Position numbers and translations under genes: made by a program
Shown here: positions 41,134-63,007 of the stretch, piece after piece
Numbering within the stretch: position 1 is the stretch's first letter
Layout: the number at the start of each line of letters is the position of its first letter
Notes under the pieces: model-generated
Told to the model about the DNA's origin: nothing
The model's database searches: none
The model's input: only the letters and a program-made list of their open reading frames with translations
Assembly (NCBI GenBank): GCA_964600295.1
Contig: CAZRIY010000001.1
Coordinates: forward strand, 24,810 to 88,809
DNA length: 64,000 bases
Direction of reading: 5' to 3'
Origin: an uncultured Candidatus Saccharibacteria bacterium
GTDB taxonomy: Bacteria; Patescibacteriota; Saccharimonadia; CAZHVB01

Positions 41134-44100
41134 CTAGCCCTGAACCTGATAATTGAATATCAGATCAATAGTAGCCGGTTCTTCCAGGTAGATGGTGAAG
41201 CCGGTGGCCGTGGCTTCAATGCGGTAGCGCGGCGCAAAACCGTTGGTGGGGCTAGCTACCACATTCGGCAGGTTGCTGTAGGCTCGAGCAAAGTCGAAAT
41301 GGACCGAGGTGGCCCCAGCCGGAATCGTCAGCTGACCGCGGGTGTCGTTGTTACCCACAGTATGACCCAGGACCTTGAGATCTTGCACAGTAGCCAGTCC
41401 GCTGACAGTCAGCGGGCCAGCCAGCGTAGTCGAACCAGTTACCTTAAGATCAGCCACAGTTGCCAAACCCGTCACTTTAAGATCCTTGGTGGTGGTGAGA
41501 TCGCTAACACTAAGAGATGTAAAGTTGCCGTCGGTCGATTGGGGACTGGTTTGGGCGGGCTGCACGTTATTGGCATTCGAGAGGGTAAACCAACCTGGGT
41601 TAACAAATACCTCAATTGTGCCAGTACCGCCTGCGCTGTATGCCTGTAAAGCCACGCCAACGATTCGGCCAGATGCAGTAGCTTTCATACCAACCCCAGC
41701 TAGTGACGAAGCCGTGATCGGATCGCCCACCGCGATGCTACCACCCTCTGTTGAAACTTTAGTGGGTACCCGACCGATTAGGGCAATTGGATAACCGCCG
41801 TCGCCGCTCCCTAAAACTTGGTGAGGCTGAGTAGACACAATGCCAATAGCACTGGCTTGATAAGCATTGGTAGTCTTAACGACTGAGCTATTGCCACTGG
41901 TTGCCACCAGCTCGCCCGGATGGAGATTTTCATTTGAGGTGTAATTTTCAGCAATATCCGCTCCGTTGGCCGTACAAGTACCAGCCGTCACAATCCCGCC
42001 CTTAACCGCTATGCCATTGAGGGTTTCTCCCGCCGCGCAAGTGGCGGTTATACCCGAAGTACCGCCGTTGCGATAAACGCCTGTTGCATTAATATCGCCA
42101 GTTACATCCAGCGCATAGGCTGGCGCCGAGGCCGTACCGATTGCTAAGCTACCAGCTGAATCAAAGTGGCTAAGTACGGTTCCGGATGAATTTTGCAGCT
42201 GCAGCAGATCAGCGGCCTGCGAAGCTATGCCTCTTATACGGATACCTACATCGTTGACACCTACGCTAGTTACTCGGAGAGTGGCACTAGCATCTATTGC
42301 GTTTGTGCCAGCGGTTAAACGTAAGTTGTTAACCGAATTTCCAGCTACCTGAAAATTATCATCAGTCTTCAAGCTATCAACAGCCGACCGATAGAGGTTG
42401 GTGTCGCCGCCAAAATTAATCCCACCACCTGCGCTAGTGGATGCAACGAAGTTCAGTTTTGCATTACTCGTAACTCCACTACCAATACCCAGATTAGAGT
42501 CGGTAACTAAAAAGCTGGCAGCCGACCGGTAGAGGTTCGTGTCGTTATCGGCCGCTCCGGTGCCGCCAAAGTAGAGTTTGCCTGAACCTTCGATACGGGT
42601 ATCGCCGGCTACATCAAGCTTGAAATCTGGACTGGTGGTACCGATACCGACGTTTCCATTCGATTTAACCGTCAATGTAACATTGGGCGTGAATAATGCG
42701 TCTGCAGTGGTGGCACCTGTCCCGCCGATAAATCTAATGTCTCCTGCCGCACCTGGATAGCTCGCAACCATACCCGAGTAGCCAATTGATGCGTGGGTAA
42801 TGGTGTATCTAAATACTCCACCAGCATCTACATAAAAGTTTGAACCAAATCCGCCTGAGCCGCTATCGGCCCCCGATGTAGTCGCCCAAGAACCGGTAGT
42901 TAGTCTTCTATTGTTCCCGCTCAATATCGCATTTCCTGCAACGTCTAGGCTTGCGCTAGGTGCGGTAGTACCAACACCGACGCGACCATCACCCCTAACC
43001 GTTAGAGCATTGTTAACGTAGCTAGCGCCATAATTGATTGATAACAGGTCATAGCCAGTGCCAGTAGCTCCACTGCCGATCCAGACAATATCGTCGTTTT
43101 GCGTGCCGGAAGGCGCCTCAAAGCGGGCAATTACTGCATTGGCAGCACCATTCTCAACGTGCAATCTGGCCGATGGGACTGTTTCGCCGATGCCGACGTT
43201 GCCGTCGTTGCGAACATAGAGTTTTGAACTATCGGCAGAGTCAGTTACATTCAAGGCCGCAGCTGTATTATCCGCAGTACTGCCCTTTACTACTAGCCTG
43301 GCCGAGGTGGGAGAGGTATTGCCGATGCCCAAATTCCCAGAACCCAGTATCGTCAGTCTTTCGTCTGGAGTTCCCCCACCATTAAAGGTATAAAGGGCCG
43401 TTCTTATTGGTGAACGTCCAGCTACTAAAATATTTTGACCAGATTGTTGCAATGCCAAGGAAGTTACATCATCGTAATTCGCCATCAGATCTACCCTATA
43501 TGATGTAGGGTTATCTGCAGCGGATAATCTTAATTTTGCCCCACCGGCAGCAACAGAACGCTGCAAATGCAATAACACTGACGGATCTGTAGTCCCGATG
43601 CCGACGCTTCCTGCAGGCGTAATGTTTACAACATCGCTTCCACCGACGGTGACCCGAAGATTACCTTCGCTAGTACCATTGGTTTCTTGGATGCCAAAGG
43701 CCCAGTCACGAGCCGTTGTGGTTTCGGCTGCTGTGGATTGGATGTGGAGACTCGTTGGTCCCAGGTAAAGATCGCGCCAACGAGCAGGGGCTGAGCCAAG
43801 ATCGTAGGTATCATCGACTCCGGGCAAGATGTGGCCGGTGACCGTCAGGTTGCCCGTTATGTTCTGACCACCGTTGACAGTAAGAGCACCCCCAACAATG
43901 AAGTTATCGTCGGTTTTGAGAGTATTAGCAGCCGAGCGGTAGAGGTTGGTATCACCCGACGAGTTAGCGTCAAAGATGATTCCCGCAGGACCAACGACGC
44001 CAAAGTCCGATGCATGGAATGAATCGTCGGTCTTGAGAAGGCTAGCACTTGCTCGGTAGAGGTTAGTATCTAAAGCATTGGTGCCGTCTCCCCATTGCAG

Positions 44101-47100: not shown

Positions 47101-49779
47101 TGGGCCCTTACGAAGAGTGCCGCCAGTGTCATATGTCAGGAAGCCTAGGAGTGCGAGATTGTTGTTTGTGATGTCGCTATTGACTATTTGAGCATAGCGA
47201 TTGGCGGCCGAAGTATATGTAGTAAGAGTGTTGGCCTTTTCAACATGTAGAAGTGCTCCGGGACCTGTGGTACCGATGCCAACGTTGCCACTAGCATCGA
47301 CTACGAACGGGGTTGAATCGGTAAAAGTGCCATCGTCGTTGACACGGAAGGCAGCCGCAGTGCCGGCTTGAGTGATCTCGAAGGTGGTATCGGTAGTAGT
47401 ATCGGTTAGTGTAATCTCAATATCCCGGCCGTCAGAAGTAGCAATGGTATTACCATTGGCATAGGCGTTTTGTAGCGTTACTGAGGGGTCAGAACCGCCA
47501 GAACCGGAACAGGTCGAGAGTTGATTGGAACCGTTGCGGCAGACCGAGGTAGAGCCGGCGGCACCGAGGGTGGTCACCGCCAGAGTACCGGTAAAGTTGG
47601 CAGCGGAAGTGATAGTTTGACCATTGATCGTACCAGAAACCAGCAGATTATCTTGGATATCCACCGTGCCACCAGCATTGACGATTAAAGTGGCGGCAGT
47701 ACTAGTAATATCTCCACCGTTGACGGCCAGATCGCCCGAACCGGCCGCGCAGGCGGTATCACTAGATTCGATACAAACTCCCCCACCAACCACGTGAAGC
47801 TTGGAATCCGGTCCTGCCGTACCGATACCGACGTTGCCGCCATCTTTAACAGCGAGAACGGTGTTGGTACCATCCTGCAAAGTTAAGATATCGCCAGTGC
47901 CATCTTGACGAACATTGAGAGCGGTTTTGTCAAACAGCGCATTATCAGCCCAAAAGATGCCCAGGGCACTTGTTGAGGTTGTTGTGTTGTTCGAATAAGC
48001 GCGAAATACCTGATCGGTTGAAATAGTGCCGTCGATTTCTAATAAAGCGCTGGGGCTATCCAGCCCGTCACCAATGACCACTCGACCGTCGGTATTGATA
48101 CGCATATGTTCGGTGCCACTAGTTTCAAATCCAAGGTCAAAACTATCATTTGTACCGAGCATAGCTACTTCGCCAAAGGAATTGCCGCCCTGGACAAAGG
48201 CTACGCCACTGCCGCTGGTGAAACCGCAGGATGCTGCACCCTGCAGGCAGACTGTACCGCTTTCGTTGGGTAAGGCGTAAGCCCGATTATCTGTTAATGT
48301 TGTGGTCTGTACAGCGCCGGTGAAACCGGAGTTGGTTAGATTTAAGAGGGGTGTGGTTACTGAGGTGCCGAAGGTGGGGTTAGCCACCGTCGCCACCGCA
48401 ATATTACCGTTGGCTCCCCCATCGCTGAGCAACAGGTTAGCACCGGCCGTTAACACCCGCTCGTTGGTTAAACTGGGATTAAGACTGAGGGTAACGTAAT
48501 CGGCACCGGCTGGGGCTGAACCGCCTCCGCCGATGCAGTTGCCAAAATTGGTACAGAAGTCGTAAACCCCAGCGGGATGGGCCGGTACCCGGTAGGTGGC
48601 ATCAGCTACCGGTGGAATGAAGGCTAAGGTGCTGGTAAAGCCACCGCTGGTGGCGGTGAGAGTGGTGGAAGCGTTGCCTTGGAGGGTTAGGGCTTGGTCG
48701 CTGGCACCGATGGTTAAGTCGGCGGTGGGGGTTAGAGTATTAGCGTAAAGAATATCGCCGACTGTTAGGCTGGCCTGGAAAGTATTATTACCGCTGAAGA
48801 CTTGGTCGGCGCGGTCGAGCAGGGCGACGTTGGGGGTCAGACGGGCATCGGCCAGGGTGCCGTGGCTGATGCTGCTGGCATTGAGGTTGGTAATACCAGC
48901 GCCGTCGCCAGCAATAGTAGTAGCACTCAGAGCCTGGAGGTTGGTATTGCCCTGGACGGTTAGATCACCTTCCAGCAAGGAATCCCCATGGACTAGCAGG
49001 CTGCCAAATTCTCCCTCTCCAGAGGTAGTTACGCTGTCAGAACTAAAATCATTAACCGTGACATCACCGAGGTTGCTGGTGCCGGTGACCTCGAGGTTGT
49101 TGATGGTGGCCAGACCGCTGACGTTGAGATCGATGAAATTAGCCAGCCGTCCATCCACTTGATCAACTTTGAGGTTGTTAATCTCAGCCTGATCTTTCAG
49201 ACCAGCCAGGCGGGCTTCAAGCTCGGCTTGCTGCTGTTTCTGGCGCTGGGCCAATTGATTAAGCTTGGTAACTGTACCGAAGATTAGCCAAGCTAATAGG
49301 CCGGCCGATAGCAGAATCAGTAGGATAAGCCAGAGGTGGCGCTTGCGGCTGGGTTCCGGCTCGTCATTGGTTGATTCCCCTGGAGGTTCTGGGGGTGGAG
49401 GCGACGGCTGAGGAATTATTGGCGGTTCTTCCACCATGGGATGGAATACGGGGGGTTGTCCAGTAGTAGAACTTGGATAAGCTACGCTTTGGTCTAGAGA
49501 TCCAACTTCACTACTGGATTGGACGGGCGCAGGTGTAAGCGGCGGAGTTGGGGAGGGCTCTGGAATGGGCTGGCTAGGAACAGTTGGCGGAGGGGTTTCC
49601 GGGGAAGTGGCAGATTGAGCCAGAGGTACTGCTGGAAATTGCGAATTTGTAGGCGGTGAGGGCTGATAAGTTTGGGGAACTGGCGGTAATTGAACCGGAG
49701 CTTCTCGAAAACCGGCAGATGCCCCTCCAATAGTTGAAGGGGCACCGTGAATTTGGCCGAAGATGTTTGTTTCAGTCAT
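41134..49779 (-). CDS. Giant (2881 aa) membrane-anchored repetitive surface fibre protein, tail-fibre-like
   Basis: Pro-rich N-terminus (~150 aa), one TM (HLWLILLILLSAGLLAWLIFG), a coiled coil, then at least 13 GNVGIGTTxPxxKLxV modules. Duplicated ..GHILPGADDTYDLGSAxxRWRDLYLGPTSLH.. units. C-terminal ~110-aa lectin-like domain shared with the next gene. Confidence 0.8.
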   Translation of the reverse strand: MTETNIFGQIHGAPSTIGGASAGFREAPVQLPPVPQTYQPSPPTNSQFPAVPLAQSATSPETPPPTVPSQPIPEPSPTPPLTPAPVQSSSEVGSLDQSVAYPSSTTGQPPVFHPMVEEPPIIPQPSPPPPEPPGESTNDEPEPSRKRHLWLILLILLSAGLLAWLIFGTVTKLNQLAQRQKQQQAELEARLAGLKDQAEINNLKVDQVDGRLANFIDLNVSGLATINNLEVTGTSNLGDVTVNDFSSDSVTTSGEGEFGSLLVHGDSLLEGDLTVQGNTNLQALSATTIAGDGAGITNLNASSISHGTLADARLTPNVALLDRADQVFSGNNTFQASLTVGDILYANTLTPTADLTIGASDQALTLQGNASTTLTATSGGFTSTLAFIPPVADATYRVPAHPAGVYDFCTNFGNCIGGGGSAPAGADYVTLSLNPSLTNERVLTAGANLLLSDGGANGNIAVATVANPTFGTSVTTPLLNLTNSGFTGAVQTTTLTDNRAYALPNESGTVCLQGAASCGFTSGSGVAFVQGGNSFGEVAMLGTNDSFDLGFETSGTEHMRINTDGRVVIGDGLDSPSALLEIDGTISTDQVFRAYSNNTTTSTSALGIFWADNALFDKTALNVRQDGTGDILTLQDGTNTVLAVKDGGNVGIGTAGPDSKLHVVGGGVCIESSDTACAAGSGDLAVNGGDITSTAATLIVNAGGTVDIQDNLLVSGTINGQTITSAANFTGTLAVTTLGAAGSTSVCRNGSNQLSTCSGSGGSDPSVTLQNAYANGNTIATSDGRDIEITLTDTTTDTTFEITQAGTAAAFRVNDDGTFTDSTPFVVDASGNVGIGTTGPGALLHVEKANTLTTYTSAANRYAQIVNSDITNNNLALLGFLTYDTGGTLRKGPTIGAVFHDRTASTAPGDLVFGYGSGNDQVEGMRLNSFGNLGIGTTSPSQKLEVQASNVGGGVGARIENSDTTNNSSFAELLLTPSSADSYVGGALRQVRGAEGAAPAGRLAISSSDTSAFQERLTVLNTGNVGINTIGPDRKFEVLDTTNPQLRLTHTDSTNYTDFRTDNVGDLTITPSGADADFAARSVSVTASQGSSPGVFLGLNNTAAKNWRLRSDPGGSFSIRNESDVLTAVTVGTTGDVTITGDLTVNGDDITSDADLTVNPAGGQVYLADTDTLNIGGVTGLAYNAISDSGGATSHGLASDDDLFIEGDLEVDGNFYADGGITSGGNLSVTGHILPGADDTYDLGSASARWRDLYLGPTSLHLQSTAAETTTARDWAFGIQETDGVSEGNLRVTVGGSDVVNITPSGNVGIGTTGPARTLDVRSSGSVVGQLLNNGGAGADAYTDIGTETATPDEVGLRLIENSSVARWTIGAQGADLDTFKIGIGSGFSGTVPLAISASSGNVGVGTTGPDSRLHVVGGGVCIEASDTGCVASSGNLRVGAVASIATSDVSGTLNIGNGSGFELYFSGAQAANIYQSASGHNLYMNSNTGPIYLGANGSGSQHITVLSSGNVGIGTIGPTSKLQVISVGTSPNANFDTSAVTLVSNTAAAVDIGPSLRFAGESGNTANPYSFATIQGAKGSATADDYQGLLKFFTTTAIGGNSERMRIDGVGNVGIGTTGPTYKLDINGTLRNNSTVLLSSGNYSNTVPTVQIGDSGYGLSSEGLAMRYWAPTGGAHRWQFADASNPMTLSGAGQLQLSVPGGSGGLLIGGDTNLYRNAANNLRTDDEFWSSQPIYASIGAGQVGIGTTGPSGSPTILFGSAGDTNLYRSAADTLSLGNDDDLRVSNAAGEEIRLQTDSSASYVNITNSAAGDWAQHIKLIGDTAARLRVLSGGTLEWGNGTTIDTNLYRAGADLLQTDDQLRVNRSTSAATGLSTIVSGDALPRWLAQAGGTLQWGDGTNALDTNLYRASASLLKTDDSFHASDFGVVGPAGIIFDANSSGDTNLYRSAANTLKTDDNFIVGGALTVNGGQNITGNLTVTGHILPGVDDTYDLGSAPARWRDLYLGPTSLHIQSTAAETTTARDWAFGIQETNGTSEGNLRVTVGGSDVVNITPAGSVGIGTTDPSVLLHLQRSVAAGGAKLRLSAADNPTSYRVDLMANYDDVTSLALQQSGQNILVAGRSPIRTALYTFNGGGTPDERLTILGSGNLGIGNTSPTSARLVVKGSTADNTAAALNVTDSADSSKLYVRNDGNVGIGETVPSARLHVENGAANAVIARFEAPSGTQNDDIVWIGSGATGTGYDLLSINYGASYVNNALTVRGDGRVGVGTTAPSASLDVAGNAILSGNNRRLTTGSWATTSGADSGSGGFGSNFYVDAGGVFRYTITHASIGYSGMVASYPGAAGDIRFIGGTGATTADALFTPNVTLTVKSNGNVGIGTTSPDFKLDVAGDTRIEGSGKLYFGGTGAADNDTNLYRSAASFLVTDSNLGIGSGVTSNAKLNFVASTSAGGGINFGGDTNLYRSAVDSLKTDDNFQVAGNSVNNLRLTAGTNAIDASATLRVTSVGVNDVGIRIRGIASQAADLLQLQNSSGTVLSHFDSAGSLAIGTASAPAYALDVTGDINATGVYRNGGTSGITATCAAGETLNGIAVKGGIVTAGTCTANGADIAENYTSNENLHPGELVATSGNSSVVKTTNAYQASAIGIVSTQPHQVLGSGDGGYPIALIGRVPTKVSTEGGSIAVGDPITASSLAGVGMKATASGRIVGVALQAYSAGGTGTIEVFVNPGWFTLSNANNVQPAQTSPQSTDGNFTSLSVSDLTTTKDLKVTGLATVADLKVTGSTTLAGPLTVSGLATVQDLKVLGHTVGNNDTRGQLTIPAGATSVHFDFARAYSNLPNVVASPTNGFAPRYRIEATATGFTIYLEEPATIDLIFNYQVQG
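48370..49140. repeat. About 0.75-kb segment ~98% identical to 60777-61547 (direct repeat between the two giant genes)
   Basis: Identical antisense ORF peptides appear in the ORF track at 48830 and 61063. One 60-nt comparison (48841-48900 against 61248-61307) shows a single mismatch. Confidence 0.7.
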
Positions 49780-50033
49780 TTTGCCGATTTTTGTTTACAA
49801 GCATAAGTTTAATCCTGGTAGGGCGGAATGTAAACAATTTTTATTCAAAAAAATATGGGGTAATTTTGCGAGTATGTAACGTTTATTGTCGGTAATAAGT
49901 TTGACCAAAATGGGTTCTGGGGCACTACTGATCGGCCCAAACGGTCGAAATTGAAATGTTCGTTTAGATGTAGGGTTGTGGCTTCGACTACAAAACCCTC
50001 TAATTTCGGTTTTTTCGGCAGTTTCGCGATTTA

Positions 50034-53000: not shown

Positions 53001-56000
53001 CGCGGCGCTGGAAAGGACGAGATTACCGAAGGACGCTGTAGTAGTACCCGCGTTATGAACTTGAAGGTCTGTTCTAGTACCGCCCCCTCCCAGGCCACCT
53101 GGCGCAGTAGTCCCGATGCCGACGTTGTTACCAGCAGTTACATATAGCGCATTGTTATTGACATTGAAGATACCGTTAGTGTTTGCGCTAACAGCGACCG
53201 TACCGCCATCGCTATTTAAGTGTAAGGTACTGGCGGCACCGTTGTTTCGCGCCAGGATTTCGTTATCATCCATGGTTATGTTAGTGCTAGTAGTGGATCC
53301 GGTTACCAAGTAACCTCCACTGGCCAAGGCAGAATCTGTACCACCAACTACGTGAAGTTTTGCGGACGGATCGATAGTGCCTATGCCAACGTTGCCACCC
53401 GATGGCTGCAGATTTAGATTGTAGGCAGTTGCGGTACCATCAGTTCTTTGCGCCTGTAGCCACGGGTCGCCATCTCCGGCAACTCCAGCTAGCAAACCGT
53501 AGTTCACATCAGTATTCGTTAGGTAAAAACCTCCGCTTGCTGAACCTAGTGTGGGTGAGTTTACGGCTGTCGAACCAGTGATTTGCAGCCGCACTTTTGG
53601 TGCAGCAGTACCAATACCTACATTGCCGGTTACATTCAGTGAGGCCGTATGGGCGGAGTTGGTGATTAGTCCGGTGGCTACAGTGGGCGAGCCACCCTGC
53701 AAGGTATCGGCATAAACCGCAGCAGTAGTGCCGGCATGGAACTGGACGTTATCCAGGCGAATGGTCTCGGCTATACCTTCGGTGAATCGCAATTTGGCAT
53801 AGGCAGTATTGGCCGGGGCGGTGCCAGTAACGGTAACTTTTTGCCAGCCACTGACACCAGTAGTGGCAGTGATGGTAGCACTTTCGCCCAATGATACTTG
53901 ACTAGCATCAAACCAAAGAATTCTGACCCGCCAGTTGCCCCCAAGACTGCCATCTTGGGCCTTCAGCCAATAGTTGCCGATATAGTCGGCGGCGGCGGTA
54001 GCAGGCATAAAGTCGCTCTCAAGAAAGTGAGTGCCCGTAGCATCGCTGACCATTTCCAGGGCGTAGCGGCCGCCGCCGCCCGTTTCGGCCACGGCAGTGG
54101 GTCCGCCGGACAGGGACCAGTTGGTGGTGTTACCGCTTTCAAAGCCAGAATTGGGTACTAGGTTGGTGGTGTCGCTATTTACAAAACCGGCGAGACCATT
54201 GAGAACCTGGACATTACCGGCCACATCTAATTTATAGGTGGGGGTGGTTGTACCGACTCCTACGTTACCGGTGGAATCTATCACCAATCTTGCAGTACCT
54301 TCATCGGCAATGGCAAAGCCACCCGGGAAGGAATTACCCGATCCTCCAATTGTAAGATCCCAGTTGCTGCCTTCGGTGCCATGAGTTAGACGCATACCAT
54401 TTAATCCAGTGCCGCCGGCTCCTTGGACTTGGAGACGAGTACCAGTACCGGTGATAGAAGTAGTGCCTATGCCGATGTTGCCAGCAAAGTATGAGTTCCC
54501 AATACCGGTTACGGTGAGTTCTCCGATAGTGGTTAAACCTTTGGGCACAGCAGTTGAAAGTGGGCTAAAGGCTAGCGGAGTACTACCAGTGTTAACCTGT
54601 ACGTTATCGAAATAAACAAATTTGCCAACTGTGGGTGCACTTGTTGTACGTATATGTATTGTCCCGGTATTGTCACTTGCAGTTGTAAGGATCATGGTAA
54701 CCCGCTGCCACTGATCTCGCAGACTCATATCAGCGTTGTATTTAGTTTGGGTAGAACCGGCAAAACCTCCATCATCTCCGATAGTTATTTGGCCACCGTC
54801 CCAATCTGCTGGCACGTATACATAGAAATACATTGAGTAAGTAGTGGTTGCGGCCAAGACCAGTGTAGGTGGAAGGGCTAGCCGGTTATCATCTTGATAT
54901 GTAGCCTTTAGTGAGTAGAGGCCGTGAAGAGCTTGATCAGTAACTGAGGCAATAGTATTGGTTCCCCGCTGCGCCCAACCGCTGGTGGAGGCATTTTCGA
55001 CGCTTGGATTTGATATTAAGTTGGTTAACCCACCACCAAAGCCACCATATGTTTGTACAAAATCATGATCAGTTTGTGATTGCAGGATATCCCCTCCTTG
55101 CAAGTCAAGCTTAGCTTGGGGAGCAGTAGTGCCAATTCCGACATTGCCACCAGGAGTGATATTTACAAGATCAGATCCACCCATGGTGACTCTCAGGTTA
55201 CCTTCGCTGGCCCCATCAGTCTCTTGAATGCCAAAGGCCCAGTCCCGGGCCGTGGTGGTTTCAGCGGCAGTAGATTGAATATGCAAGCTAGTGGGTCCGA
55301 GATAAAGATCTCGCCAACGGGCTGCCGCTGAGCCCAGATCGTATGTATCATCGGCTCCGGGCAGAATGTGGCCAGTGACGGTTAGGTTGCCGCCAGAGGT
55401 TATACCGCTATCCGCATACAGTGTGCCGTTAACTTCTAGATCGCCCTCGATAAATAGGTCGTCATCCGAAGCCAAACCATGGCTGGTAACTCCGCCTGAA
55501 TCCGAAATTGCGTTGTATCCAAGCGCGGTTACCCCGCCGATATTCAAGGTATCACCATCCGCAAAATAGACTTGCCCGCCGGAAGGATTAACAGTTAGGT
55601 CTCCGCCACTATCGGCCTGGAATTCGGTGTAAACCGAGCCATCGGTGTGTGTGAGGCGCAGCTGAGGGTTGGAGGCATCCAGTACATCCAGCTTGCGATC
55701 TGGCCCTGTCGTATTGATGCCGACGTTTCCGGCATTATTTATACGCATACGCTCGGCTTCAGTCGCAGAACCATCTGGCGTTGTATAAAACTGCAAACGG
55801 CCAGGCATATCGCCATCCCCAGGAGTCGCATCAACTGCAGCAACTATTCTAGCGGCCGTTTCGTATGAATTGGCATCATAGCCGGTAAATGAGAGCCCTC
55901 CAATGGAGTCGCCAGAAGATACAACAGCTGGGGACCCAAGGCTACCACGAGATTTTCTGACTTGAAGCGCTACACCGTTGGCGTCCGCACTGGCGCGCTC

Positions 56001-59000
56001 AAACAGACCATTGGTACCCGAACTCAAAGCCGTGTGCAGTAAGGCTCCTGGACTAGTCGTACCGATACCCACATTACCGCTGTTGAGAATTGTCAGGATC
56101 TCTGCCGCTCCAAGGTTGTTTATGAAATGATAATCATTTGCTTGAAAGCGCAGAGCGGTGTTGGCTGTGCCCGCATCGTTGAGCGCACTCAGCCGTACCT
56201 GCGAAGCGGAGGTAGATATTGTGAAGTTTTGGTCGGTTCCAACCCTCACATGAAGAGGTGCTTGAGGAGTGATAACCCCAACACCAACACCACCCGAAGC
56301 TTTCAAAGTAAGGATGTTAGCGGTATTAAAAGCAGTACCCGCATCATTAGTGGAGTTGAACGAAAGGATACCATCAGTGGTGCCGTTATCAACAAAGAAT
56401 ACTCGTTGCCCCGAAGTAGAACCCGTGTTTTCAAAATATAGCCTGTTTTTGCCGCTGGTTCCCGAGCTTGAAGTTAGAATCAACCCTTCGTCAGCATTGG
56501 GAATCGTTATACCACTTGAACCACTGCCCACTACGTGTATTTTTCCTAGAGGGCTGGTGGTGCCAACGCCCAGTTTGCCTGAAGCATCTACCACAAAGGG
56601 CGTGGAATCCGAGAAGGTTCCGTCATCGTTAACTCTGAAAGCCGTAGCAGTACCAGCTTGGGTAATCTCGAAGGTGGTATCGGTAGTTTGATCAGTCAAT
56701 GTAATTTCAATATCCCGCCCATCGGTTGTCGAGATAGTATTGCCATTGGCATAGGCGTTCTGCAATGTTACCGAGGGGTCAGAACCGCCCGAACCCGAGC
56801 AAGTGGCAAGTTGATTTGAACCGTTGCGGCAGACTGAGGTGGAGCCGGCGGCGCCTAGCGCGGTGACGATTACATTACCGGAAGAGTTAACCCCAAAAAG
56901 ATCGCCAGATCCGACGGTAAGTAGATATGCAGGAGAGGTATCACCAATGCCGACCCTGCCTGTGTTATCTATCCGTAACCTCTCAGCATTACCATCGCGG
57001 TAAACAAATGGAATAACTGATGTGCTGCTAGTTGATGAGATGCCCTGTAAACCATTTATATTGTCGACAAAAATGCCAAGCCGACGATTATTTGTGCCGT
57101 CATTAAGGTAAGTAGAAATACCGGCGATACCGGACGTTTGGCTGTTTATAACTTGCGGAGTAAATCCTGTGCCTACTCCATCAGGTAGAGTTGAAGTCAA
57201 CCCTGCACCAATCTGGAGTGCAACACCAGGGTTAGTTGTACCAATGCCGACATTACCGTTTTGATCTATTGTCATCCGCACGCTCGGGGTTGGAGATGCC
57301 CCAGCATCATTAGGGGTAGTATAGAATGCTAACTTCGCACCCGAATCGGTATCAGCACCATATCCTTCAGTAGTTAAAGCTTCTATTTTGGCTACAACCT
57401 TGGGATTGGTTGTAGTAAAACTGGTATCATTTGAAGCAAATTGAATAACACCCAAGACATCATCTGTTGCACTGCTCGACACATCCCCACCTAGTCGAAG
57501 AATCGCTGAAGAACCGGGATTTGCAGATACATCCAATTTTACCGCCGGGCTTGTAGTACCGATGCCGACGAAACCTAAATCTGATCCGGCACCACCTTTA
57601 ATCGTCACTCGAGTTCCGGTAGTATCGCCTGTTCTGAAAATTAAATCATCGCTAGAAGTTCCTCCCTGAAGCTGCAACGGACCACCCGAAGACATGACAG
57701 TGAGCGACCCTGTGCCTGTACTATCTATCTTGTAGTTCCCAACAGAAGTATGCGTTATATCAACCCCATCGGATCGGCCCGCCCCCTGTGAGCGAATGCC
57801 CGTATCGCTTCTTACGTGTAGCGAGGTGCCAGGCGCTGTGGTGCCGATGCCGACGTTGCCGGTTGGTGTTACGTTAATTACATCGCTTCCCCCGACGATT
57901 ACCCGTAGGTTGCCTTCGCTGACTCCATCGGTTTCTTGGATGGCAAAGGCCCAATCTCTAGCTGTTGTGGTTTCAGCCGCGGTAGATTGAAGATGCAAGC
58001 TAGTGGGTCCCAAGTAGAGATCGCGCCAGCGGAGGGCGGCAGACCCCAGATCGTAGGTATCGTCGGTAGCAGGTAGCAAATTGCCTGCTAGAGTCGTGGC
58101 GGAACTAGTTACCGCTAAGTAGCTGGTGCTACCAGCATTGTTCTGGACTTCCAGCAGGTTGGCACCAATGGGTGTGGCGTTGTCCCGAACCGTTAGGGCA
58201 CCACGAGTAGCGTCTAGAGTGATTTCGGGAGAGGTTGAAGCGTTGTAGGCGGTTTGGAGGGTGGCAGCACCACCCCCAGTTAGACAGTTACCAGCAGTGG
58301 AACAAAGATCGTAGGTGCCGGCAGCGGCATCAGCCAGGCGGTAGGTAATGTCGGCAGTGGGGTTAACAACCGACAGTACGGTTTCACTGGCATCAGCACT
58401 GGTCCCTTCCCAAATCAAGCTAGCATCGCTCTGGACACCAAAGAGGTCACCATTACCGACGGTTAGAAGATAAGCCGGAGTTGTATCGCCGATACCAATG
58501 CTGCCACCGTTAGCGGAGTCAACTGTTAGTACCCGCACGTAGTTGGTAACTCCGCCAGTGGTGTCCGTATCTATATCAAAGCCGAGCTCGTCGTCGGCGC
58601 CATTTATATCACCAGTACGAAGAACCATGGAACGATTAATTGGGCCAGTTATGTTGTTGACTAAATCCGCTGTATTACTAAGCACCAAATCACCCGCGCT
58701 GGTAATCTTTAGGCTTTGCTCCATTACATCGTCCAGTCGGGTATTAAACACCAAATCGGCATCCGCCGTGCTGGCCGATCCCGTTGTCCAAGTATCAGTC
58801 TTGACCGCGTCGATTTGTGCGGCCGAGCGAAATGCACTAGCTCCCGACAGAGATAAACCAAAATCTATCCTTGTCCCAGCCGAGGTACCAACATCGATAT
58901 TTGCTATCCTTAGGGCCGTTGCGGTTGAGTTAGCGCTAGTGGGGTATACTTCTAGTTTTGCTGTGGGGCTGGCGGTACCTATGCCGACGTTGCCGGTAGC

Positions 59001-62000
59001 AGAATTTGCATAAAAGGTAGAGGCAGCGGTCGATTTATTGTGTAGGTTTAAGATTGGGTGATTACCAGTGCTATCTAGTGTAATTCTAAACGCACTATCG
59101 GTACTGGCATTACCACTGGCATCGAAAAGCAATTGGTTTGTACTGCGCCCTATTGAGGCAATCTGCCCGCCATCGCTATAATTATACGCATCTGAATTCA
59201 ATTCCCCCGCTATAAGTTGAGTGGCCTGCACCTGTAGGGTGCGTCCAGAGTTGGTATTGTCAACCATACGGATCAAGCCCGCTTCAATACGTACTGGATT
59301 ATTTGCCGCTACATCAGCACCCAACCAGGATGTCCCGTTTACGTTGAGTTTCGCTCCTGGAGCGGCGGTACCAATTCCGACGTTGCCGGCGGCATCAATC
59401 ACAAATGGAGTGGTGTCAGTGAAAGTACCGTCATCATTGACCCGAAAAGCATCAGTAGTACCGGCTTGGGTAATTTCGACAGTTTGATCAGTGGCAGTGT
59501 TGTTAAGAGTAATCTGGATATTGCGCCCATCGGTGGTAGAGATGGTATTACCGTTGGCATAGGCATTTTGCAGTGTTACCGAGGGATCGGAACCGCCGGA
59601 GCCGGAGCAAGTGGCCAGCTGGTTTGAGCCATTGCGGCACACCGAGGTGGAGCCAGCTGCGCCCAGGGCGGAAACCCGAATACTGCCGGTGACATCCAGG
59701 ACATCAGCCGGAGCGGAAGCTGAACCTAAAGCCAAGCTGCCAGCACTATTAAAGTGACTCAAGACAGTTCCGGATGAATTTTGCAGCTGCAGCAGATCGG
59801 CGGTTTGAGAAGCCGCAGCTTTAACTACAAGAGCTTTGCGGGTTGAAGATGTGGCCTGAACAATAAGCGCTGTTGTGTAGTCAACATTAGCTGCATTGAA
59901 GCCCAGACTGACCTGAGGTAGTTCAATATTAACACCGCCCCAGTCCGTCCTGACTCCATTGCTATTTGAACCGCTAAAATAGAGGTATTGCTGATTTGTA
60001 CCGCCAGATCCAATCGAATAATAACGTCCATCGGCAGCCAGGGTTGGAAACTTAATACCGCCAGATGTGGCTGAGCCTGGATAATCCACTCCGACGCCAA
60101 CGGTGAGCTTACCTGCGTTACTTAGGGAAGCAAGAATTGCCCCTGTCGAATTTTGCCATTCCTGGAGGTTGGCTGTTTGCAAAGCAATTCCCTGTACAAC
60201 TAATCCTTTGTTAGTAGTAGCACCAGTTGATATAGCCACCTGGGCCAGGTTATCGGCTGTAGTGAGAGGGTTAATCCGTAAGGCATTCGCAGTACCGTTT
60301 TGGGTAATGGTTACTGTTTGATCAGTAGCGGTATCTGATAGCGTGATTGCTATATTTCTACCATCGGTGGTGGTGATAGTGTTGCCGTTGTTGTAAGCGT
60401 TTTGCAGGGTTACCGATGGGTCGCTACCCCCAGAGCCGGAGCAGGTTGAGAGTTGGTTGGAGCCGTTGCGGCAGAGCGAGGTGGAACCGGCGGACCCGAG
60501 TGTCGCCACAGCCAGAGTGCCGGTAAAGGTAGCGGCAGAGGTGATGGTTTGGCCGTTAATTGTGCCGCTTACAACATTACCACTGGTATCAACTTGGAAG
60601 GCATTGCCTGTACCGATAGCTAGGGTGGTGCTGACGTCAAGCGCGCCAGTGATATTGGTGGCACCTTGAAGCTCAATGGTATCGGCTGAGTTCAGAACGA
60701 TATCGTTACCGACGCCGCTACTGGTGAGAGTCAAAGTACCGCTACTTTGCACCAGCGGGGTGGTTACCGAGGTGCTAAACGTCGGATCACTCACCGTAGC
60801 AATCGTAATATTACCGTTGGCTCCCCCATCGCTGAGTAACAGGTTAGCACCGGCGGTTAGTACCCGTTCGTTGGTGAGAGAGGGGTTGAGGCTAAGGGTA
60901 ACGTAGTCCGCACCAGCCGGGGCTGAACCCCCTCCGCCGATACAGTTGCCAAAGTTGGTGCAGAAGTCGTAAACCCCAGCGGGGTGGGCCGGAATACGGT
61001 AGATAGCGTCGGCCACTGGGGGTATAAAAGCCAGGGTACTGGTAAAACCACCGCTGGTAGCGGTGAGAATGGTCGAGCTGTTGCCCTGGAGGGTTAGGGC
61101 TTGGTCGCTGGAACCGATGGCGAGGTCCCCGGTGGGGGTAAGGGTATTGGTAAAGAGGGTTTGCCCGACGCTGAGGTTAGATTGGAAGGTATTGTTGCCG
61201 CTGAAGACTTGGTTATTACGGTCGAGCAGGGCGACATTAGGGGTTAGACGGGCATCGGCTAGGGTGCCGTGGCTGATGCTGCTGGCATTGAGGTTGGTAA
61301 TACCAGCGCCGTCGCCGGCAATAGTAGTAGCACTCAGGGCTTGGAGACTGGTATTGTCCTGGACGGTTAGATCACCCTCGAGCAAGGAATCACCGTGGAC
61401 CAGCAGGCTGCCGAATTCGCCTTCACCAGAGGTAGTTACGCTGTCAGAACTAAAATCATTAACCGTGACATCACCCAGATTGCTGCTGCCGGTAACCTCG
61501 AGGTTGTTGATAGTGGCCAGACCGCTGACATTAAGATCTACGAAATCGGCCAGTTGGCCACTAATATGGTTGACGGTTAGCTGATCAATATGCATCTGCT
61601 GTTCGGAGGCCTCTTGGCGCTGCTGTTCTAGGCTGGCCAGCTGGTCCAGGCCCACTGCCAGGCCATGAATCAACCACCCCAGGGCGCCGGTGACCAGTAA
61701 TATTAGTAACAGGGGTGCTAATGCCCAGCGGCGAGGAGTGGGATGGTCTGATTCTTCCGAGAGGGTTTCCTCTGGTGGAATAATGGGTGGCTGGCCAGCC
61801 GATTGATCGGGGGAAAAGATGTTGGGCTCTGCCGGAGAAGTATTGGGCGTTTGCGTATCTAAACTATAGGGAGCATATATCTGAGGTGTGTCGGCGGGCT
61901 GTGGATTATTATTCGCTTCTGGTCCGGTTAGAGACCACCCTGCCGCCGGCACGACTGCGACCGCCTCGGGGCGATCGGCTTCTATCGGGGCTGGTGGGGG

Positions 62001-62942
62001 CCAATAGGTATTGGGCTGGATTTCCGGTTCAGGGGCAGGCGTTGGTTTTGTTTCCTCAAATTCTGTGGGTGGAATTGGCAACACCGGAGAAGCCGATGTA
62101 TTTTCGGGGTTAGCTGAGCCGATTGCCGTCGAATGGATGGCGTGACTGGGATTTGGTCTCGTTTCAGATGGTGAAACCGGAGTTTCGGGCGCAATTAATT
62201 GTGCTGGCGGGATTTCAGTTAACTGAGGTGATGCAACTATCGGGTTTGGTAATGCTTCGTGGGGTGGGGTGGATTCTACGGGCTGAGAAACTGGAGGATC
62301 CTGCCCATGGTAGCTAGCTGGAGTAGCAAGAGGATCGGCTACGGGATTGGCTGGTTCTTCGGAGGTAGATGGAACCTGTTCTGCCGCAAAGGCTGTTTGA
62401 TTTTCGGAAACTAGGGCTGATGCGGGAACCGGAATTTCGGTTGCATCCAGAGGAGCAACGTTAGCTGGGGGGATAGCAGGTGCAGACTGCACATCAGATC
62501 CTGACACATTAGCGGAATCGGGATTTGTACTTCTAAGAGCTTGGTCAGAGATCGGTGAAGGCGGTTTAGATGAAACAACTTGTGTCTCATCTGGGATAGG
62601 GGGATTGGTTTGCTCTGGTGATCCCACTTCACTGCGCGATTGGACGACGGGTGGGGGTTGAGTAGCCCGAGCCTCTTCTATCACCGCAGTGATGGGGTGC
62701 GAAGCAATCTGGCTGTTAGTAGTGGGGTTAGACTTACCCGCTTCCAGGGGCGACGGCGTAACTGCAGCTACCTTGAGAAAACCACTCTGGGATGATTCGC
62801 CGGGGCTGTTATCAGCTTTAACATGTGAATAATTAAACTGTTTAGTTAAACGGTGTAGACGGGTACGACAGCGGTCAGAGCAAGTTTTGGCTCCTCTGCG
62901 ACCGCTAAAATTAGTTCCGCAAACCTGGCAATTTGTACTCAT
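50034..62942 (-). CDS. Giant (4302 aa) membrane-anchored repetitive surface fibre protein: zinc ribbon, Pro-rich cytoplasmic region, TM, coiled coil, tail-fibre modules, intramolecular-chaperone (S74-like) domain, C-terminal lectin-like domain
   Basis: N-terminal CQVCG..CSDRC. About 400-aa P/S/T-rich region. TM at ~61660-61735. Three ..LCRNGSNQLxTCSGSGGSDPSVTLQNAY.. modules. SSDERLKTNIQGFE...VTYNWR...GLIAQEVE motif (~50560-50830). Terminal ..DTRGTLTIPAGATS...TATGFVIHL..DLTFDYMVQQ. Confidence 0.8.
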   Translation of the reverse strand: MSTNCQVCGTNFSGRRGAKTCSDRCRTRLHRLTKQFNYSHVKADNSPGESSQSGFLKVAAVTPSPLEAGKSNPTTNSQIASHPITAVIEEARATQPPPVVQSRSEVGSPEQTNPPIPDETQVVSSKPPSPISDQALRSTNPDSANVSGSDVQSAPAIPPANVAPLDATEIPVPASALVSENQTAFAAEQVPSTSEEPANPVADPLATPASYHGQDPPVSQPVESTPPHEALPNPIVASPQLTEIPPAQLIAPETPVSPSETRPNPSHAIHSTAIGSANPENTSASPVLPIPPTEFEETKPTPAPEPEIQPNTYWPPPAPIEADRPEAVAVVPAAGWSLTGPEANNNPQPADTPQIYAPYSLDTQTPNTSPAEPNIFSPDQSAGQPPIIPPEETLSEESDHPTPRRWALAPLLLILLVTGALGWLIHGLAVGLDQLASLEQQRQEASEQQMHIDQLTVNHISGQLADFVDLNVSGLATINNLEVTGSSNLGDVTVNDFSSDSVTTSGEGEFGSLLVHGDSLLEGDLTVQDNTSLQALSATTIAGDGAGITNLNASSISHGTLADARLTPNVALLDRNNQVFSGNNTFQSNLSVGQTLFTNTLTPTGDLAIGSSDQALTLQGNSSTILTATSGGFTSTLAFIPPVADAIYRIPAHPAGVYDFCTNFGNCIGGGGSAPAGADYVTLSLNPSLTNERVLTAGANLLLSDGGANGNITIATVSDPTFSTSVTTPLVQSSGTLTLTSSGVGNDIVLNSADTIELQGATNITGALDVSTTLAIGTGNAFQVDTSGNVVSGTINGQTITSAATFTGTLAVATLGSAGSTSLCRNGSNQLSTCSGSGGSDPSVTLQNAYNNGNTITTTDGRNIAITLSDTATDQTVTITQNGTANALRINPLTTADNLAQVAISTGATTNKGLVVQGIALQTANLQEWQNSTGAILASLSNAGKLTVGVGVDYPGSATSGGIKFPTLAADGRYYSIGSGGTNQQYLYFSGSNSNGVRTDWGGVNIELPQVSLGFNAANVDYTTALIVQATSSTRKALVVKAAASQTADLLQLQNSSGTVLSHFNSAGSLALGSASAPADVLDVTGSIRVSALGAAGSTSVCRNGSNQLATCSGSGGSDPSVTLQNAYANGNTISTTDGRNIQITLNNTATDQTVEITQAGTTDAFRVNDDGTFTDTTPFVIDAAGNVGIGTAAPGAKLNVNGTSWLGADVAANNPVRIEAGLIRMVDNTNSGRTLQVQATQLIAGELNSDAYNYSDGGQIASIGRSTNQLLFDASGNASTDSAFRITLDSTGNHPILNLHNKSTAASTFYANSATGNVGIGTASPTAKLEVYPTSANSTATALRIANIDVGTSAGTRIDFGLSLSGASAFRSAAQIDAVKTDTWTTGSASTADADLVFNTRLDDVMEQSLKITSAGDLVLSNTADLVNNITGPINRSMVLRTGDINGADDELGFDIDTDTTGGVTNYVRVLTVDSANGGSIGIGDTTPAYLLTVGNGDLFGVQSDASLIWEGTSADASETVLSVVNPTADITYRLADAAAGTYDLCSTAGNCLTGGGAATLQTAYNASTSPEITLDATRGALTVRDNATPIGANLLEVQNNAGSTSYLAVTSSATTLAGNLLPATDDTYDLGSAALRWRDLYLGPTSLHLQSTAAETTTARDWAFAIQETDGVSEGNLRVIVGGSDVINVTPTGNVGIGTTAPGTSLHVRSDTGIRSQGAGRSDGVDITHTSVGNYKIDSTGTGSLTVMSSGGPLQLQGGTSSDDLIFRTGDTTGTRVTIKGGAGSDLGFVGIGTTSPAVKLDVSANPGSSAILRLGGDVSSSATDDVLGVIQFASNDTSFTTTNPKVVAKIEALTTEGYGADTDSGAKLAFYTTPNDAGASPTPSVRMTIDQNGNVGIGTTNPGVALQIGAGLTSTLPDGVGTGFTPQVINSQTSGIAGISTYLNDGTNNRRLGIFVDNINGLQGISSTSSTSVIPFVYRDGNAERLRIDNTGRVGIGDTSPAYLLTVGSGDLFGVNSSGNVIVTALGAAGSTSVCRNGSNQLATCSGSGGSDPSVTLQNAYANGNTISTTDGRDIEITLTDQTTDTTFEITQAGTATAFRVNDDGTFSDSTPFVVDASGKLGVGTTSPLGKIHVVGSGSSGITIPNADEGLILTSSSGTSGKNRLYFENTGSTSGQRVFFVDNGTTDGILSFNSTNDAGTAFNTANILTLKASGGVGVGVITPQAPLHVRVGTDQNFTISTSASQVRLSALNDAGTANTALRFQANDYHFINNLGAAEILTILNSGNVGIGTTSPGALLHTALSSGTNGLFERASADANGVALQVRKSRGSLGSPAVVSSGDSIGGLSFTGYDANSYETAARIVAAVDATPGDGDMPGRLQFYTTPDGSATEAERMRINNAGNVGINTTGPDRKLDVLDASNPQLRLTHTDGSVYTEFQADSGGDLTVNPSGGQVYFADGDTLNIGGVTALGYNAISDSGGVTSHGLASDDDLFIEGDLEVNGTLYADSGITSGGNLTVTGHILPGADDTYDLGSAAARWRDLYLGPTSLHIQSTAAETTTARDWAFGIQETDGASEGNLRVTMGGSDLVNITPGGNVGIGTTAPQAKLDLQGGDILQSQTDHDFVQTYGGFGGGLTNLISNPSVENASTSGWAQRGTNTIASVTDQALHGLYSLKATYQDDNRLALPPTLVLAATTTYSMYFYVYVPADWDGGQITIGDDGGFAGSTQTKYNADMSLRDQWQRVTMILTTASDNTGTIHIRTTSAPTVGKFVYFDNVQVNTGSTPLAFSPLSTAVPKGLTTIGELTVTGIGNSYFAGNIGIGTTSITGTGTRLQVQGAGGTGLNGMRLTHGTEGSNWDLTIGGSGNSFPGGFAIADEGTARLVIDSTGNVGVGTTTPTYKLDVAGNVQVLNGLAGFVNSDTTNLVPNSGFESGNTTNWSLSGGPTAVAETGGGGRYALEMVSDATGTHFLESDFMPATAAADYIGNYWLKAQDGSLGGNWRVRILWFDASQVSLGESATITATTGVSGWQKVTVTGTAPANTAYAKLRFTEGIAETIRLDNVQFHAGTTAAVYADTLQGGSPTVATGLITNSAHTASLNVTGNVGIGTAAPKVRLQITGSTAVNSPTLGSASGGFYLTNTDVNYGLLAGVAGDGDPWLQAQRTDGTATAYNLNLQPSGGNVGIGTIDPSAKLHVVGGTDSALASGGYLVTGSTTSTNITMDDNEILARNNGAASTLHLNSDGGTVAVSANTNGIFNVNNNALYVTAGNNVGIGTTAPGGLGGGGTRTDLQVHNAGTTTASFGNLVLSSAATGDTSLMGCMQFGSTGLSGADKRTANICSNKEDALTVNPVGSLRFSTANGGSPTERMRIDENGNVGIGTTGPDSRLHVVGGGVCIESSDTGCASASGNLRVSGGSKLGNVSATPAYADHTTILSDSGTAFEGGLLLTNSDSGTLGTSAIKLSSAFGGGTGADFQLGVVDQSTPNTFATTFLYGDGATGNVGIGNTGPGFKLDVTGDVRLNNAGTLRFYRSDGTTQGLTVSAGATNNFITGTNGSIILTAPGIFNDLGAGSSFNVRNAGAATTHLTVLESSGNVGIGDSTPTEGRLVVGTNTTANETIAVQSGANSALLLTADTDNDGGEVGTSYISFSQDNAGVTSILGTIQTAGQDSSGASFTNALANATLLGAKAGNFALQFGTGSAVNMTILNGGLVGIGTNSPSEELEVNGEIEIAGGETVDDKRLIFAASDKTDRFFIETDLDASTPNDLLGFRGLNTDNILVLRGDGNVGIGTITPAARLEVASGTAPSLTGTGWSQILNDTRTAAAGVGGSLLFKGYKTAQSAQAVFAGIWGQKENATAGDESGALLFYTNPNTGTLAERMRVTSAGNVGIGTTGPAGKLEVSESTDANVLQFLTATSTTKYAASTVRNTASGGASLETYAFGPTYTGVSYFGRAATDTTNIVSAGDTSLGIGTFGATPLLFGTNNAERMRIDSTGNVGIGTTDPSAQKLVVAGNVRVGIGTDGCVEDADGTVIAGTCSSDERLKTNIQGFEPILDRFGQLRAVTYNWRAEEFPDRHLGTATQQGLIAQEVEALFPELVSMDSLGFKQINFSALPIYNIQATAELKLRVDELDQRLSQLEPVEDAQPGDEAQAETEGPAQAETDAEAIQNNSDFSDLNVANTITANELKVVQLVTSAKLEVTGLATIAELKVTGLTSVGDIVISGHVIGNADTRGTLTIPAGATSASYSFSRAYGGVPHVVVSAQANPGSFYWVEKTATGFVIHLAEPTTADLTFDYMVQQ
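60777..61547. repeat. Partner copy of the ~0.75-kb inter-gene direct repeat
   Basis: See 48370-49140. Confidence 0.7.
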
Positions 62943-63007
62943 ATTTTTGGTTTTTGTCTAAATTATTTGTTCGTTTATATGTGTCATTATCAAGCATAAC
63001 CGTTACA

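Follow-up and report, generated by a model that had tools for sequence, protein, structure and literature searches.

Two tandem giant proteins of a Candidatus Saccharibacteria bacterium join a predicted membrane anchor to phage-fibre-like shafts and intramolecular chaperones: candidate fibres for attachment to other cells

What might a Candidatus Saccharibacteria bacterium, small and probably symbiotic, do with two neighbouring genes for proteins of 2881 and 4302 amino acids, both assembled largely from modules familiar from phage tail fibres? The question is raised by a window of 64,000 nt (the whole stretch of DNA analyzed here, positions 24,810 to 88,809 of contig CAZRIY010000001.1 in assembly GCA_964600295.1), in which gene 2 (g2; 50034..62942, 4302 aa, identical to P0006) lies upstream of gene 1 (g1; 41134..49779, 2881 aa, identical to P0005). 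Both are on the minus strand, to which all coordinates within the two genes refer, both begin with ATG, and a spacer of 254 nt separates them; the coordinates and lengths given for the pair in a first-pass annotation of the locus agree exactly with ours. In each protein, a proline-rich N-terminal tail and a single hydrophobic helix are followed by a long shaft of beta-helix-type repeats, an intramolecular chaperone and an H-type-lectin-like C-terminal domain (CTD). On balance, we favor the view that g1 and g2 are type II-anchored, self-matured and very long trimeric beta-helical surface fibres that would bind glycans of other cells. Since only type IV pili and a few adhesins have so far been implicated in host recognition by ultrasmall epibionts (PMC10633639, PMC11665869), the two proteins, which are probably glycan-binding adhesins, offer concrete and testable candidates for epibiont-host attachment.

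Architecture of the two giant proteins

The shafts of g1 and g2 each end in one of two known phage intramolecular chaperones. In g2, residues 4041-4145 (50508..50822) constitute a Peptidase_S74 domain, with residues 4041-4100 scoring 51.7 bits (whole protein) or 57 bits (segment) against Pfam PF13884 at a cutoff of 22, and with the catalytic serine followed by a lysine at +5 in the motif S4041-D-E-R-L-K4046; the corresponding S74 mechanism has been described for Ser1264/Lys1269 of T5 pb1 (PMC4690869). Among PDB entries, the domain matches the phage S16-type fibre chaperone 6f45 (E 1.5e-7) and, more distantly, the ICA domain of the eukaryotic transcription factor MYRF (7dc3, E 0.002). Self-cleavage of g2 is predicted between S4040 and S4041. 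The first-pass annotation had recognized this domain, correctly, but had assigned a chaperone to g2 only; g1 carries one as well, of the phi29 gp12 (Peptidase_G2) type, at residues 2608-2760 (41500..41958) with the motif D2608-I-A-E2611. This domain of ~150 aa ('GADIAENY...GRVPTKV...GD.ITASS..G.GMKA') is common to some 20 giant relatives, and although in g1 itself it has no Pfam match, 5 of 17 aligned relatives match Peptidase_G2 (PF11962, best E 1e-5), and the family profile matches domain D4 of Dpo31 (E 0.0015) and phi29 gp12 (E 0.0025-0.0047). An AlphaFold2 model of the g1 domain (predicted local distance difference test score, pLDDT, 81) retrieved 3gqh_A, the C-terminal fragment of phi29 gp12, as its best Foldseek match in the PDB (E 1.4e-3, prob 1.0, TM 0.48/0.51), followed by 3suc and then by phage cement proteins of the same fold. 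The D, A and E of the DxAE motif are invariant in the 17 relatives, and the motif aligns to DFAE, residues 1-4 of the released phi29 gp12 fragment; D4 of Dpo31 starts at an Asp and trimerizes by itself (PMC13317679). For g1, self-cleavage is predicted between A2607 and D2608. Across the wider family, S74 and G2 are alternatives at the same position, and a CTD-bearing relative, P0070, has a G2-type domain (1058-1218) and S74 (1317-1415) in series. As a separate observation, a pair of cysteines precedes the predicted scissile bond in both proteins (C-x13-C-S|S in g2, 50700-50830; C-x20-C-x5|D in g1, 41950-42050) and in many relatives, e.g., P0018, P0011 and P0027, which recalls the annulus of cysteines in the P22 tailspike and is in keeping with an oxidizing extracytoplasmic location.

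Behind the chaperone, both proteins close with a domain of about 95 residues that is 53% identical between g1 (residues 2787-2881, 41137..41421) and g2 (residues 4208-4302, 50037..50321), preceded in g2 by an acidic linker with short beta-helix-like repeats (residues 4146-4207, 50322..50507). A shared lectin-like domain at this place had been noted before, with a length of ~110 aa that now has to be corrected. Its monomer model (core pLDDT about 90) adopts the six-stranded beta-sandwich fold of Helix pomatia agglutinin and discoidin, and 35 of 39 family members match Pfam H_lectin at E<=1 (best E 9e-6), so that the term 'lectin-like' is supported at the level of modeled fold and of family; the g1 domain itself, with 12.8-13.5 bits (E about 0.1) against PF09458, does not reach the cutoff of 24. 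In an exhaustive hidden Markov model search, the CTD was found in 3543 cluster representatives at E<=1e-3 and in 1443 at E<=1e-10; its profile recovered one fragment only from a word-indexed protein database. The domain ends at most 15 residues from the C-terminus in 108 of the 157 CTD-bearing proteins examined, and where at least 250 residues lie upstream of it (103 informative proteins), S74 directly precedes it in 48 cases and G2 in 39, giving the order chaperone-then-CTD in 87 of 103 with a median gap of 37 residues. The catalytic signatures are largely retained in these proteins, SDxxxK in 35 of 53 with S74 (10 exceptions were inspected, and all were S-x4-K variants) and Dx[AS]E in 34 of 40 with G2. 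Phage records that match the S74 part of g2 number 466, but neither the g1 CTD nor the g2 CTD nor that of a central family member had a match in 50,697 phage genomes; among 71 CTD proteins with a length of 600 aa or more, 52 have an N-terminal hydrophobic segment. Given that the CTD was missing from these phage genomes and that the hydrophobic segments are present, the cassette of chaperone and lectin-like domain seems to be characteristic of proteins that cells export, and not of cultured phages. Since the CTD of either gene is located C-terminal of a chaperone with intact catalytic residues, it would, by the known mechanism, be cut off with the chaperone instead of being shown at the fibre tip, contrary to the distal binding lectin proposed in the first-pass annotation; it would act as a trimerization aid or transient cap (compare PMC10579305) rather than as a permanent tip. 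In two relatives, P0011 and P0017, S74 is followed at the very C-terminus by another transmembrane helix in place of the lectin-like domain, and both ends of these proteins would be membrane-tethered before cleavage.

At the other end of the proteins, residues 1-148 of g1 (49336..49779) form a proline-rich tail (27% Pro in residues 1-147), and residues 36-405 of g2 (61728..62837) a Pro/Ser/Ala-rich low-complexity tail (18% Pro in residues 1-405), both predicted to be cytoplasmic. The g2 tail is headed by an FCS/treble-clef-like zinc ribbon with a basic helix (residues 1-35, 62838..62942, predicted cytoplasmic), which we recognize by its pattern C5-x2-C8-x12-C21-S-x2-C25, by a sub-threshold match to the 'treble clef' family DUF2116 (E 0.003), and by the recurrence of this type of head in P0189, a relative of unrelated length. 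Each protein then has a single putative signal-anchor helix, at residues 149-171 in g1 (49267..49335, Kyte-Doolittle peak 2.69) and at residues 406-432 in g2 (61647..61727, Kyte-Doolittle peak 2.37, the sole peak in the protein). When Lys and Arg were counted in the 15 residues flanking this helix in 26 relatives, 92 fell on the N-terminal and 47 on the C-terminal side, with an N-terminal excess in 20 proteins and a C-terminal excess in none; this positive-inside bias supports an N-in/C-out (type II) topology, which g1 and g2 would share. Directly after the helix, residues 172-214 of g1 (49138..49266) show the heptad pattern of a short juxtamembrane coiled coil, with hydrophobic a/d positions at a fraction of 0.75 versus 0.23 elsewhere, a value reached by 1.3% of shuffles. 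In g2, the heptad pattern after the membrane helix was not significant in the shuffle test, and a coiled coil was rejected for this protein.

Further along each protein comes a membrane-proximal module of ~265 residues that is 90% identical between g1 (residues 215-479, 48343..49137) and g2 (residues 467-731, 60750..61544). No relatives of this module were found in GTDB species genomes and Joint Genome Institute (JGI) metagenomes, and a word-indexed protein search returned just four partial matches, all to the sub-motif 'YVTL..LTNERVLTAG'. The shaft proper comprises residues 480-2607 in g1 (41959..48342), with 14 GxVGIGT and seven DTNLYR motifs, and residues 732-4040 in g2 (50823..60749), with 20 GxVGIGT motifs; 'DDTYDLGS..RWRDLY' occurs twice in either protein. 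These repeats match PHROG tail-fibre families at E values of 1e-20 to 1e-73. In phmmer searches, a 261-aa segment of the g1 shaft matched the Bdellovibrio bacteriovorus mosaic adhesive trimer (MAT) protein Bd2133 (8ond) at E 6e-12, and the shaft repeats matched the further MAT structures 8oml, 8ojn and 8ol4, the aligned unit being '..ERMRI...GNVGIGT..P..KL.V'. By sequence, then, the shaft repeats have homologues in the beta-helix modules that build the MAT fibres, the closest characterized family. Two carbohydrate-binding modules interrupt the g2 shaft: a CBM_4_9 domain (PF02018) at residues 2641-2765 (54648..55022; 30.3-37.9 bits, cutoff 25.9) and a second, divergent CBM_4_9-like module at residues 2927-3050 (53793..54164; E 0.006, 17.4 bits, below the cutoff). 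These two had been overlooked in the first-pass annotation; of the features that it listed, the proline-rich region, the g2 zinc-ribbon pattern, the single hydrophobic helix and the tail-fibre-like modules were all recovered, and the coiled coil was supported for g1 but not for g2.

Neither the 2881 codons of g1 nor the 4302 codons of g2 contain an in-frame stop, and DNA repeats within and between the two genes are only 61-82% identical, which leaves nothing for an assembly to collapse; the best stretch shared by g1 and g2 is 84.7% identical as DNA and 90% as protein. In the Nei-Gojobori analysis, the ratio of nonsynonymous to synonymous substitutions (dN/dS) between g1 and g2 was 0.09 for the membrane-proximal module (dS 0.66) and 0.06-0.07 for the 'DDTYDLGS..RWRDLYL' modules (dS 1.2-1.7). 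Low dN/dS at such synonymous distances indicates at the sequence level that g1 and g2 are old paralogues under purifying selection. A misassembly artefact, i.e., the frameshifts or repeat collapse that had been named as fatal to the fibre interpretation, was thus rejected on the grounds of uninterrupted reading frames, repeat identities of 61-82% and dN/dS values of 0.06-0.09. Both proteins are also recorded from an NCBI contig of 236,763 bp.

Maturation of the putative fibres and competing explanations

Chaperones of the S74 and gp12 type nucleate trimers at the C-terminus, cleave only in the correctly folded trimer and then depart (PMC4690869, PMC10769870, PMC13317679). It is from this known behavior, together with the MAT precedent, that we propose a type II-anchored, self-cleaved trimeric fibre. 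The single signal-anchor helix would insert the chain while the proline-rich tail (with the zinc ribbon in g2) remains in the cytoplasm, and some 2400 (g1) or 3600 (g2) residues would be exported unfolded via Sec, the C-terminus emerging last. The C-terminal cassette (S74 in g2, phi29-gp12/G2 in g1, each followed by the H-type-lectin-like domain) would then nucleate the trimer, and the triple beta-helix would zip from the distal end back to the membrane. Once a correct trimer has formed, the chaperone would cut itself off at S4040|S4041 (g2) or A2607|D2608 (g1), which would remove the chaperone plus the lectin-like domain, a fragment that may linger as a transient cap. The extracellular parts left behind, of 2436 and 3608 residues, would form mature fibres of ~100 nm (g1) and ~145 nm (g2), lengths that are extrapolated by scaling from Bd2133, in which 370 residues span 150 Å, and that are similar to the patescibacterial cell width of 100-300 nm (PMC11665869). 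Shaft modules, among them the two CBM_4_9 modules of g2, and the tip regions would finally bind glycans on another cell, and host attachment would be the outcome. The predicted cleavage sites and the CBM modules are directly checkable.

Several observations sit uneasily with the proposed route. Export of 2400-3600 residues behind a signal-anchor that lies 150-400 residues from the N-terminus would be unusual. Release of the phi29 chaperone needs ATP; since there is no ATP outside the cell, a G2-type chaperone may behave differently there. Moreover, the phi29 gp12 chaperone has been reported to bind ATP, and most residues of the ATP site are kept in Dpo31 (PMC13317679). An independent Logan assembly of the same run (SRR6868922) yielded neighboring genes, and the full giant open reading frames (ORFs) were not recorded from it. 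Finally, several phage tailspikes and R-pyocin fibres have the same H-lectin-like fold as their permanent tip for receptor binding, and the CTD might likewise be retained as the fibre tip.

This last point leads to the main alternative, which retains its rank because of these phage spikes and pyocin fibres ending in the same fold, but which we consider somewhat unlikely: the fibres would be the same, the chaperone would not be released, or not even cleaved, and the lectin-like domain would stay in place as a distal, host-recognizing lectin. The position of the CTD behind an intact chaperone motif in both genes, with the motifs conserved throughout the family, speaks against it, as do the sub-cutoff H_lectin score of g1 and the behavior of the characterized S74 and G2 proteins, all of which shed everything C-terminal of the scissile bond (PMC4690869, PMC10769870, PMC13317679). 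An improbable option in our estimation is that g1 and g2 build a structural surface coat, a glycocalyx-like or spacer layer that keeps cells at a distance or protects them, rather than acting as specific adhesins. CPR (candidate phyla radiation) epibionts have a thick fibrous layer and fibre-filled gaps of 20-100 nm that have been credited to giant membrane proteins (PMC8080830), the predicted fibre length of 100-150 nm is of the same order as those gaps, and the strong conservation of the membrane-proximal module between the paralogues would suit a structural element. Ligand binding is nonetheless suggested by the CBM_4_9 modules and by the relationship to MAT fibres, which include one that binds glycans of the prey, and two divergent paralogues with different inserts look like diversified specificity.

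The cytoplasmic heads invite a further explanation, compatible with adhesion, which we regard as distinctly improbable: g1 and g2 would be transmembrane contact sensors that relay fibre binding or tension to a nucleic-acid- or partner-binding head. Among relatives with tails of at least 80 aa, the cytoplasmic tails of P0021, P0037 and P0155 contain a MerR-type helix-turn-helix (HTH) above Pfam cutoffs, those of P0026 and P0029 give weak HTH_17 matches, and P0189 shares the g2 zinc ribbon; some N-terminal HTH segments, however, may be gene-call fusions, as P0023 has a transposase-type HTH. MYRF provides a precedent insofar as it is a membrane-tethered transcription factor with a nucleic-acid-binding head (in g2, such a head is only predicted) and an S74-type, trimerizing and self-cleaving domain. 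In MYRF, though, the ICA domain is flanked by the DNA-binding domain and the transmembrane helix, so that cleavage frees the factor, whereas the S74 domain of g2 is ~3600 residues away from the membrane helix and on the opposite side of the membrane from the head; cleavage at this site, which is distal in the extracellular part, cannot release a cytoplasmic head. In addition, g1 has no recognizable cytoplasmic domain, the zinc-ribbon match of g2 is below the cutoff, and a single helix with a 370-residue disordered linker would be a poor signal conduit. A related and quite unlikely notion is that the two proteins represent a hitherto undescribed class of bacterial 'tethered fibres', i.e., phage-derived self-maturing trimers of more than 100 nm on one helix with a nucleic-acid-binding cytoplasmic head. 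If this were true, an ultrasmall symbiont would both grab a cell of its partner and inform its own cytoplasm of the contact, and the chaperone-then-H-lectin cassette would be an adaptation for folding phage-type fibres outside the cell. The idea that g1 and g2 are virion or tailocin parts, be it prophage tail fibres, components of a phage-derived particle or genes on a contaminating phage contig, draws on the strong PHROG matches and the phage records matching S74, yet is hardly credible: both proteins have an internal transmembrane anchor behind a long N-terminal tail, the flanks encode UppP, NDK, PpiC, SodC, tRNAs, ThrRS and MurT/GatD, genes for capsid, tail, portal or terminase are missing there, and the CTD, lacking in the phage genomes searched, goes along with N-terminal hydrophobic segments in most of its larger carriers. 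A prophage fibre was rejected for the housekeeping context and the membrane anchor, and a polymorphic toxin because neither a toxin domain nor an immunity gene was found. The earlier description of the layout as that of a cell-anchored fibre of phage-fibre modules, as opposed to a secreted toxin, is supported.

Relatives and known systems

Searches with the whole proteins brought up about 36 more giant proteins, 1.9-4.9 thousand residues long, that follow the same plan of tail, one transmembrane helix, fibre, and S74 or G2, sometimes with the CTD. Where their records bear a name at all, it points to Saccharimonadales or Patescibacteria: 'carbohydrate binding domain-containing protein [Candidatus Saccharimonadales bacterium]' or 'tail fiber domain-containing protein [Patescibacteria group bacterium]'. 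The genes of the two best relatives, located on contigs of 330-360 kb, follow the ATP synthase operon, and one of them is in tandem with another giant gene. Our NCBIfam search gave nothing meaningful, and searches of the literature turned up no publication about proteins of this type in Saccharibacteria or about the combination of S74 with an H-lectin domain.

The MAT fibres of B. bacteriovorus (e.g., Bd2133 and Bd3182; Caulton et al. 2024, PMC10769870; PDB 8ond, 8ol4, 8oml, 8ojn, 8on4, structures that cover C-terminal parts only) are trimeric, flexible and surface-displayed (PMC10769870). Like g1 and g2, they are phage-fibre-like, encoded on the chromosome, mosaic and paralogous, and they have the homologous repeat unit; their bearer lives on other bacteria, as that of g1 and g2 probably does; one MAT subgroup has S74 (SDxxxK), and another has alternative C-terminal ends. 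MATs are, however, only ~1000 aa long, g1 and g2 being 3-4 times longer, and they have a cleavable signal peptide as well as a conserved N-domain of 130 aa for docking to the predator surface where g1 and g2 have a cytoplasmic tail and a transmembrane anchor, their sole hydrophobic segment starting at residue 149 (g1) or 406 (g2). The use of a G2-type chaperone besides S74 and of a lectin-like domain after the chaperone likewise sets g1 and g2 apart from the MATs. Measured against the definition of MAT proteins, the two thus have the homologous repeat modules and lack the cleavable signal peptide. As the MAT fibres are prey-recognition devices, the homology would suggest the recruitment of phage receptor-binding hardware in each of two unrelated lineages that live on other bacteria.

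Compared with the S74 fibres of phages (K1F endosialidase, T5 pb1; PMC4690869), g2 has in common the Ser/Lys-type S74 domain straight after the triple beta-helix and its helical end; but the phage chaperone forms the C-terminal end and folds in the cytoplasm, while g2 continues for another 157 residues, the CTD among them, and would fold outside the cytoplasm. The g1 chaperone shares with phi29 gp12 (Peptidase_G2; 3gqh, 3suc) and Dpo31 D4 (PMC13317679) the fold, the DxAE motif opening the released fragment and the position after a beta-helical shaft, although it is distant from them (E about 1e-3, 16% identity), and the phi29 domain is ATP-linked, whereas that of g1 would be outside the cell and is followed by a CTD. 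Relative to H-type lectins (H. pomatia agglutinin, discoidin I/II, SLL-2) and the ends of tailspikes and R-pyocins, the sequence signal is weak in g1 and g2, and the domain follows the predicted site of autocleavage instead of preceding it.

Very large surface or membrane proteins are also known from CPR epibionts (Vampirococcus, PMC8080830; S. methylophilicida, PMC13059738) and from Apilactobacillus kunkeei (Giant1-5, PMC12863079), where they account for a considerable part of a small genome, are sometimes encoded in tandem and have been proposed to function in cell-cell contact. Host attachment by giant surface proteins of CPR epibionts is thus not a new proposal (PMC8080830, PMC13059738), and tandem giant surface genes in small genomes have a precedent (PMC12863079). 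These giants, unlike g1 and g2, consist of WD40, PKD, integrin, FN3 or SRRP-like beta-solenoid domains, and phage-fibre repeats or intramolecular chaperones have not been reported in them. The giant genes of Omnitrophota belong to a different class. With MAT-homologous repeats (PMC10769870) and dozens of giant relatives in public databases, the first-pass view that the exact domain combination is not a described family has to be qualified, as the class has precedents. Features that do appear to be new are a transmembrane anchor whose cytoplasmic head is a zinc ribbon or an HTH, the occurrence of both chaperone types among paralogues, the cassette in which an H-lectin follows the chaperone, and the extreme length. 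The cassette, with S74 or G2 followed by the H-lectin-like domain, is widespread (about 3500 cluster representatives) and apparently undescribed, and it may explain how phage-type trimeric fibres fold outside the cytoplasm.

Promoters and genomic surroundings

A sigma70-like promoter candidate for g2 (62986..63015, minus; TTGACA-18-GATAAT) matches the consensus at 11 of 12 positions 44 nt before the ATG, a consensus match only, and a weak promoter-like site in the spacer upstream of g1 (49806..49834, minus; 9/12) is no better than those in shuffled sequences. The window is part of a bacterial chromosome, with RNase P RNA, tmRNA and seven tRNAs. Genes around g1 and g2 further include NUDIX, an M23/FG-GAP peptidase, MiaA, signal peptidase and PilB, besides those for UppP, NDK, PpiC, SodC, ThrRS and MurT/GatD. 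When UppP loci of 66 named genomes were compared, identities did not exceed 44% and the genomes were scattered in taxonomy, and exact look-ups of 10 housekeeping proteins gave singleton clusters. Directly downstream of g1, a 190-aa protein with a single transmembrane helix (40477..41049, minus) has no Pfam match; a 59%-identical homologue is encoded in L068 (26015-26287), 5.7 kb downstream of the giant gene P0008, and the protein may be a companion of the giants, or the two loci may only share ancestry.

Some minor features of the window deserve mention. The NDK gene (38605..39273, overlapping 38102..38659 at 38605-38659, minus) ends in a (KP)7 repeat, and the same 6-nt repeat, read in another frame, provides the (AK)n start of the following NUDIX ORF, which has a GTG start; the NUDIX start is probably misplaced, or else the repeat is a slippery tract. 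Two ORFs of 93 and 85 aa with a 4-nt overlap (37507-38042, minus) resemble an antitoxin-toxin pair of the RelB/YafQ type. A Replic_Relax gene (27214..28062) adjoins tRNA genes at 25151 and 25903, and this region (25151-28062) may be the remnant of an integrated mobile element. The M23 peptidase fused to FG-GAP repeats (32799-34271, minus) is secreted, and a large M23 peptidase (29904-31982) is also found near the giant gene of the relative locus L067. On the far side of the pair, a GIY-YIG-like ORF of 90 aa (63415-63687, plus) is divergent from g2 across a 470-nt AT-rich spacer, and a 42%-identical homologue of it occurs in L069, near another giant fibre gene.

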